The position numbers and the translations under genes were made by a program. From the NCBI RefSeq assembly GCF_003334315.1, contig NZ_QOWR01000006.1: 64,000 bases of DNA; one strand, 5' to 3'. Under the pieces are notes generated by a model, which was not told the DNA's origin, did not search any database, and was given only the letters and a program-made list of their open reading frames with translations. This DNA is from Escherichia coli. GTDB taxonomy: Bacteria; Pseudomonadota; Gammaproteobacteria; Enterobacterales; Enterobacteriaceae. This document shows positions 59,789 to 60,395 of the stretch, piece after piece; within the stretch, counting starts at the first letter, position 1, and every line of letters begins with the position of its first letter.

Positions 59789-60395
59789 TTATAACACCAT
59801 CTGAGCCATTTTCTGATAATTCAATCTGTCTGCTGTATCACCGGGCAAGTGGTATTGTTTATTACGATAAAAAGCGGTGTCAGTAATCATTACGGCGGGA
59901 ATATCGTGTTGCCAATAATTCAGGTGGTCAGAGAAATCAATACCGGGAATAAACCATGGGGCATTCATAGAATAAACAGATAAATCCCGGGATGATAACA
60001 ATGCCGTTTTTACCTGACGAACGGCGTTGATATCCTGTATTCTGCCGACCAGGCAATAAAGTCCCCCCGATCGGGATAAAGCCAGGACATTGCGGGTAAG
60101 GGTAATCCTGGCTACCAGGCGCAGAGTCGTAATAGCCAATCGGGGACGCCCTGCGCGGTAACTCTGGCACCGCTACTGACAAAGAACTCTTTTATATACT
60201 CTACGGACCTATTCAGATTATCAATATTGTCGGCATTACGTGGATGCACAGTTTGTGTAAGATAACGAACTGTTTTTTCTAATTGCTCAGGACTGACGTG
60301 TCGGGGCGTTGGCGATAATGCAGTGACCCAGGGTTGGTAAAAATAATCAGAGGGAGTGAAATCAGAAATAATATAACAAAAGGATTTTTTTTCAT
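59789..60395 (-). pseudogene. yfbL: Degraded yfbL-like M28-family peptidase gene
   Basis: ATG at 60395 encodes a signal-peptide-like start (MKKNPFVILFLISLPLIIF...) that hits TAG at 60279-60281 after 38 codons. Protein-like sequence resumes in a second frame and again in a third (ORF 59789..60139, M28-like C-terminus ...YHLPGDTADRLNYQKMAQMVL). The ~607-bp locus is too short for the ~323-aa protein I recall. Confidence 0.55.

Follow-up and report, generated by a model that had tools for sequence, protein, structure and literature searches.

The 64,000-nucleotide stretch of Escherichia coli DNA analyzed here (contig NZ_QOWR01000006.1, referred to as the window) carries, on the minus strand at 59766-60395, what is almost certainly the E. 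coli yfbL locus in the state of a pseudogene. The remnant has elaD on one side and yfbM and nuoN on the other, and the gene order elaD / remnant / yfbM / nuoN is the same in the window and in E. coli genomes. The features of the region are the following:

57636-59093, plus strand: nuoN
59160-59663: yfbM, 167 aa
59766..60395, minus strand: the complete yfbL pseudogene, with the ancestral ATG at 60395-60393 and the ancestral stop TAA at 59768-59766
60530..60712, plus strand: yfbK remnant, divergently transcribed, with pieces of aa 20-40, ~484-492 and 565-575 and the stop at 60710-60712
60783-61994: elaD, an intact 403-aa ORF

The orthologous locus of K-12 is yfbL (b2271; WP_000719999.1 in strain JB41), which lies next to yfbM and encodes an M28 family metallopeptidase of 323 aa. 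When aligned to the yfbL genes of K-12 and of strain 19A14, the pseudogene was found to measure 630 bp, compared to 972 bp in intact K-12 yfbL, and in contrast to the latter it has lost codons 88-196 and is frameshifted by four additional deletions. Over the 641 bases that can be aligned, the identity to K-12 yfbL is 95%; to the 19A14 gene it is ~96-98% in the retained blocks that lie 3' of the variable 5' end. Every retained segment is colinear with YfbL aa 1-87 and 197-323; conserved position and colinear nucleotide homology thus identify the remnant as a yfbL orthologue by descent.

In the flanking DNA, a perfect inverted repeat with arms of 14 bp (ttcgaccagtcagc / gctgactggtcgaa) and a loop of 6 nt is found at 60733-60766, 17 nt 3' of the elaD stop and between elaD and the yfbK remnant. 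It is kept in K-12 and probably serves both convergent genes as a terminator. The deubiquitinase gene elaD, intact in the window, is annotated as frameshifted in strains CAVP879 (L001 2499-3718) and JB2 (L006 1-1217), two strains whose yfbL remnant is the same as that of the window or nearly so.

Reading frames of the yfbL remnant

Pieces of K-12 YfbL were found by tblastn in all three minus-strand frames. YfbL aa 7-87 matched at 60384-60142 (E=1e-33) and aa 222-312 at 60067-59795 (E=2e-50), and aa 197-225 and aa 210-226 were located in the second and third frame, respectively; with E-values down to 2e-50, the homology is far beyond chance. Translation from the original ATG would halt after 38 codons, as the ORF at 60279-60395(-), which begins MKKNPFVILFLISLPLII..., ends with the TAG at 60281-60279. 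The next frame carries ...EKTVRYLTQTVHPRNADNIDNLNRSVEYIKEFF... and is open until the TAG at 60114-60112, and a 116-aa ORF at 59789-60139(-) bears the M28-like C-terminal sequence. Because the gene contains five frame-breaking lesions, the homologous reading switches frame five times, following a six-segment path (60395-60344, 60343-60142, 60141-60094, 60093-60052, 60051-59802 and 59801-59766) with these pieces of homology:

60344..60395, minus strand: segment 1, in the ATG frame, signal-peptide-like N-terminus MKKNPFVILFLISLPLI(I), YfbL aa 1-~19
60142..60338, minus strand: segment 2, in the second frame, YQPWVTALSPTPRHVSPEQLEKTVRYLTQTVHPRNADNIDNLNRSVEYIKEFFVSSGARVTAQGVP, YfbL aa ~21-87, tblastn E=1e-33
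60094..60141, minus strand: segment 3, in another frame, IGYYDSAPGSQDYPYP, YfbL aa 197-212
60052..60092, minus strand: segment 4, AMSWLYPDRGDFIA, YfbL aa 213-226, tblastn 94% identity
59802..60051, minus strand: segment 5, VGRIQDINAVRQVK...FSDHLNYW...YHLPGDTADRLNYQKMAQ, YfbL aa 227-310, tblastn E=2e-50
59766..59794, minus strand: segment 6, VITLLHNSK and the ancestral TAA at 59768-59766, YfbL aa 315-323

Segment 1 has a 2-codon in-frame gap relative to YfbL (a 6-bp difference just after the ATG) and an A8 run directly 3' of the ATG. Segment 5 forms the bulk of ORF 59789-60139 and keeps the sole surviving metal-ligand position, His269 of K-12. Segment 6 is out of frame with segment 5, the frame of which stops at the TAA at 59791-59789.

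The first yfbL codons (window 60372-60395) constitute an indel hotspot, with A7 or A8 after the ATG and with -4, -6 and other indels among alleles. In the 'intact' yfbL of 19A14 (L004 6100-6125), the ATG is not in frame with the gene, and in the PGAP annotation the CDS begins at an ATA; going by its sequence, this gene may also be compromised at its start.

Lesions disrupting yfbL

The lesions were mapped using the K-12-type yfbL of JB41 (L002 6103-7074) and the closest intact allele, that of 19A14 (L004 6115-7077), as references, and the same five frame-breaking differences were found against both:

60339..60343, minus strand: lesion 1, T6 contracted to T5, -1 frameshift
junction 60142/60141, minus strand: lesion 2, 326-bp internal deletion corresponding to K-12 CDS nt 262-587, codons 88-196
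60093, minus strand: lesion 3, GG to G (CCCGGCA to CCCGCA), -1 frameshift, present in all six short alleles aligned
between 60052 and 60051, minus strand: lesion 4, loss of a G (GCCGTGG to GCCTGG), -1 frameshift, absent from O145
between 59802 and 59801, minus strand: lesion 5, 7 bp lost, with the remaining GATGGTG at 59795-59801, frame shifted

All intact alleles, as well as the O157 and O145 short alleles, have T6 at the site of lesion 1, and it is the contraction to T5 at 60339-60343 that brings about the premature TAG at 60281-60279. The internal deletion shifts the frame and takes out His113, Asp132/133, Glu165-Glu166 and Glu195. GATGGTG is present twice in tandem in the O157-type precursor, so lesion 5 represents the loss of one 7-bp repeat unit. 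Three of the four small lesions are consistent with replication slippage: the T6 to T5 change and the GG to G change at 60093 shorten a base run, and the 7-bp loss shortens a tandem repeat. The G lost at 60052/60051 did not sit in a run. At the junction of the 326-bp deletion no shared bases were found when microhomology was looked for, which leaves a microhomology-mediated origin of this deletion unsupported.

A preliminary description of the window, made from the sequence, had presented the locus as a frameshifted and fragmented yfbL-like M28 peptidase gene. This holds, the gene being the yfbL orthologue with its pieces in three frames and with the identical allele flagged 'frameshifted' by PGAP. 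The alignments also bear out its coordinates for the 38-codon signal-peptide ORF ending at TAG 60279-60281, for the second-frame continuation with a stop at 60112-60114 and for the M28-like C-terminus in ORF 59789..60139 (116 aa), and the internal deletion that it had suspected was found by alignment to intact yfbL to be exactly 326 bp. Its account of the first frameshift, as a T lost from an aat-tta-gaa string beside the TAG, does not stand: this string (CAA TTA GAA, Q-L-E) is unchanged in each of the three intact alleles, and the second-frame homology already starts upstream of it, at FYQPWV, placing the slip ~60 bp upstream in the T-run at 60339-60343. The frame-breaking lesions number five, not two or three, as the two single-G losses (60093 and 60052/60051) and the 7-bp loss had been missed. 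Similarly, of the extent given as 59789-60395, the start at 60395 was retained, but the end was moved from 59789 to the ancestral TAA at 59768-59766.

Loss of the M28 catalytic core

The Pfam M28 model (PF04389) covers residues 95-317 of intact K-12 YfbL with 88.5 bits and an i-E of 6e-25. In comparison, a frame-restored translation of the window matched model positions 143-186 of 193 only, with 18.5 bits and a sub-threshold i-E of 0.0018, and by this profile the remnant does not classify as a functional M28 member. The three real ORF fragments gave nothing near a cut-off when compared to NCBIfam, the longest ORF scoring 14.8 bits versus a cut-off of 600. The M28 domain is moreover not encoded in a continuous frame, as the reading changes frame five times and the ATG frame ends at 38 codons.

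The bacterial leucyl aminopeptidase (AAP) of Vibrio/Aeromonas proteolyticus (PDB 1AMP, 1RTQ) is the structural prototype of M28, and intact YfbL aligns to it across the metal-binding core with E ~1e-9 to 1e-10. The metal ligands of AAP (1AMP) are His97, Asp117, Glu152, Asp179 and His256, with Glu151 as the general base. The YfbL motifs GAHYDS (111-116), PGADDNASG (129-137), ASEE (163-166) and ALEM (193-196) align with solved M28 aminopeptidases (2EK8; 1AMP/1RTQ), and all four fall inside the deleted aa 88-196. We take these motifs to correspond to AAP His97, Asp117, Glu151/Glu152 and Asp179, respectively. By alignment, the deleted codons 88-196 hold four of the five predicted M28 metal-ligand positions and the predicted catalytic Glu, and the window remnant, unlike AAP, keeps only the equivalent of the last His (His269, in FSDH), the other ligand positions being deleted. 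As the catalytic core is deleted, no frame restoration could rescue the enzyme, and we infer that the locus cannot yield an active peptidase.

The same segment bears on the direction of the length change. Were the short form ancestral, the 326 bp of the K-12-type alleles would be an insertion, which the bare length difference by itself would allow; the chance of this is vanishingly small, as the 326 bp encode the H-D-EE-E motifs that align with M28 aminopeptidases of unrelated bacteria, account for the first half of the domain as defined by Pfam, and are missing from an allele that is out of frame across the junction.

It is also very unlikely that the locus is a functional shortened or recoded gene, in which programmed frameshifting stitches the pieces together or the 116-aa or 38-aa ORF has come to serve a separate function. 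In favor of this, the allele is widespread and stable, and the remnant contains the open 116-aa frame and weak promoter-like matches, but recoding would need five separate frame changes, one of them at the deletion junction, for a product whose catalytic core is missing. The lesions furthermore vary by lineage, so that no frame structure is conserved and no single conserved shift site is present. As for the 116-aa ORF, it begins at a TTG within former coding sequence and belongs to no family above cut-off (NCBIfam 14.8 vs 600). The nine promoter-like matches, against 4.4 +/- 2.2 in shuffled sequences, represent consensus matches in AT-rich DNA.

A phase-variable gene was considered as well, the lengths of the T-run and A-run being variable, but restoring T6 leaves the 326-bp deletion and three frameshifts in place, and the idea was rejected. 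A scan of 58900-61000 against Rfam gave only three chance-level matches (22-29 bits vs gathering scores of 70-100), and a hidden RNA gene or riboswitch in this interval was rejected. The scan for promoter and terminator consensus sequences gave a few matches in the AT-rich DNA and was uninformative.

Distribution among E. coli genomes

The population was sampled using 801 bp around the locus as query against 5,426 complete E. coli genomes, and the locus was present in 5,354 of them. At least 99% identity over the 801 bp was seen in 1,243 records, and several of these, isolated from dogs, cattle and humans, were at 100%. Where an intact 'yfbL: M28 family metallopeptidase' is annotated, the query extends over ~1,140 bp, not 801. 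The 326-bp middle segment was found in 3,311 of the 5,354 genomes with the locus, leaving ~2,040 genomes (~38%) that have the locus without it. The 5' 105 bp including the T5 run were at least 99% identical in 1,258 genomes, and the one-copy (7-bp-deleted) 3' end was found in about 1,320. The lesions are thus real alleles reproduced in independent genomes, and a large group of E. coli lineages has the allele as a fixed and common polymorphism.

These counts also decide on whether an otherwise intact yfbL could have been split by sequencing or assembly errors, i.e. homopolymer miscalls. Lesion 1 does lie in a homopolymer (T5 vs T6) and lesion 3 contracts a 2-base run, but the 326-bp and 7-bp deletions are not of homopolymer type, lesion 4 lies outside any run, T5 is seen again in ~1,258 genomes, and several independent complete genomes match the 801 bp at 100%, with 1,243 records at ≥99%. 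We consider such an error extremely improbable, as more than 1,000 independent assemblies reproduce the lesions. An intact homologue of the same frame structure, which would have contradicted the preliminary description, was not found either.

The allele is already known, since an identical one is marked as a pseudogene in RefSeq: ACV8PP_RS17220 of CAVP879 ('zinc-binding metallopeptidase family protein, frameshifted') is 100% identical over 801 bp and is a 630-bp pseudogene between elaD and yfbM. RefSeq/PGAP flags the locus as 'frameshifted' in CAVP879 and also in O145:H28 RM12581, JB2, Ecol_AZ147 and O157:H7 EDL933, the short alleles of which are related to it. These PGAP pseudogene records say only 'frameshifted', and the internal deletion is unrecorded. 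With a 326-bp deletion and losses of 1, 1, 1 and 7 bp relative to two intact references, the yfbL remnant is a typical unitary pseudogene, and no new mechanism is required to explain it.

Six short alleles were aligned, including those of the window, CAVP879, JB2, Ecol_AZ147, O157 and O145. All six had lost the 326 bp and the G at 60093, and all except O145 had also lost the G at 60052/60051. The T5 run was present in Ecol_AZ147, JB2, CAVP879 and the window, and the 7-bp loss in Ecol_AZ147, CAVP879 and the window. EDL933_RS32635 of O157:H7 EDL933 resembles the window in two of the single-base losses and in the 326-bp deletion. Unlike the window, the O157 and O145 alleles still have T6 and the 7-bp repeat in two copies, and either allele has single-base indels of its own. 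The overall distribution is as expected if one early deletion inactivated the gene and decay then went on within lineages. In Ecol_AZ147, however, T5 and the 7-bp loss occur together with the -4 N-terminal indel of O157 type, and JB2 has the -6 indel and T5 without the 7-bp deletion. Such combinations of small lesions fit no single clean tree, which implies recombination or recurrent slippage and blurs the order of events. The 3' half of the O145 short allele is K-12-like, which suggests recombination.

On the retained codons, pN/pS was 0.37-0.58 between intact alleles and the remnant and 0.13-0.33 among intact alleles, a difference that has the direction expected of relaxed selection but that with ~20 substitutions per comparison is not significant alone. 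The additional indels of single lineages point in this direction too, as does an IS1 found in KTa005, a river-water isolate, inside an otherwise 100%-identical yfbL remnant (NZ_CP147084.1, 2901683-2903259).

The surrounding haplotype

In K-12, yfbK encodes a 575-aa vWA-domain protein and lies between elaD and yfbL. In the window its start codon is gone and ~1.5 kb are deleted, and the same yfbK remnant is found in O145 RM12581 and in 19A14. Sequence from the interior of yfbK was detected in 2,537 of the 5,426 complete E. coli genomes. As 19A14 has the yfbK remnant yet keeps the middle segment of yfbL, the loss of yfbK probably took place before the inactivation of yfbL in this haplotype.

The window haplotype differs from K-12 in being devoid not only of yfbK but also of yfbNOP. 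A 2.56-kb yfbN-yfbO-yfbP block lies between yfbM and nuoN in K-12, where the window has only 66 bp (59094-59159). This block was found in 1,013 of the 5,426 genomes, almost all at ≥99% identity. With so few carriers and near-identical copies, a deletion of yfbNOP in the window is less likely, and the block is most likely an accessory insertion acquired recently in the K-12 lineage.

The region upstream of yfbL, including the 5' part of yfbK (window 60396-60650), is ~71% identical to K-12, compared to ~99% for the flanking elaD, yfbM and nuoN. This divergence indicates a presumed old haplotype split or recombination mosaic.

Discussion

Taken together, there is very little doubt in our view that the yfbL remnant is a non-functional, progressively decaying pseudogene of a gene for a secreted or periplasmic M28 zinc peptidase. 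In the history that we propose, yfbK would have been lost earlier in the same haplotype. The 326-bp deletion would have been the first event in yfbL, thereby freeing the locus of selection, and the small deletions would have piled up afterwards, lineage by lineage.

Deletions of yfbL and yfbO in K-12 (Keio) have been reported to confer specific resistance to phage N4, with sensitivity restored in the mutants by complementation from ASKA plasmids (bioRxiv 10.1101/2025.09.29.679331). The window strain is naturally without a functional yfbL and without yfbO. The loss of yfbL (together with yfbK/yfbO) in ~38% of E. coli might be a selected loss of host factors that lowers susceptibility to N4-like phages, as opposed to neutral decay. 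We regard this as unlikely; the sequence data show only the wide spread of one inactivating deletion followed by further decay, and are neutral on selection.

In itself, the yfbL remnant is a routine and ordinary pseudogene of little importance. The precise lesion map is useful for annotation, as the key event is the 326-bp deletion of the core where the records say 'frameshifted' only, and the nested set of lesions could be used to mark lineages of E. coli. Should yfbL indeed be an N4 host factor, as the preprint claims, about one third of E. coli in nature would be yfbL nulls, a point of relevance to the range of hosts open to N4-like phages.
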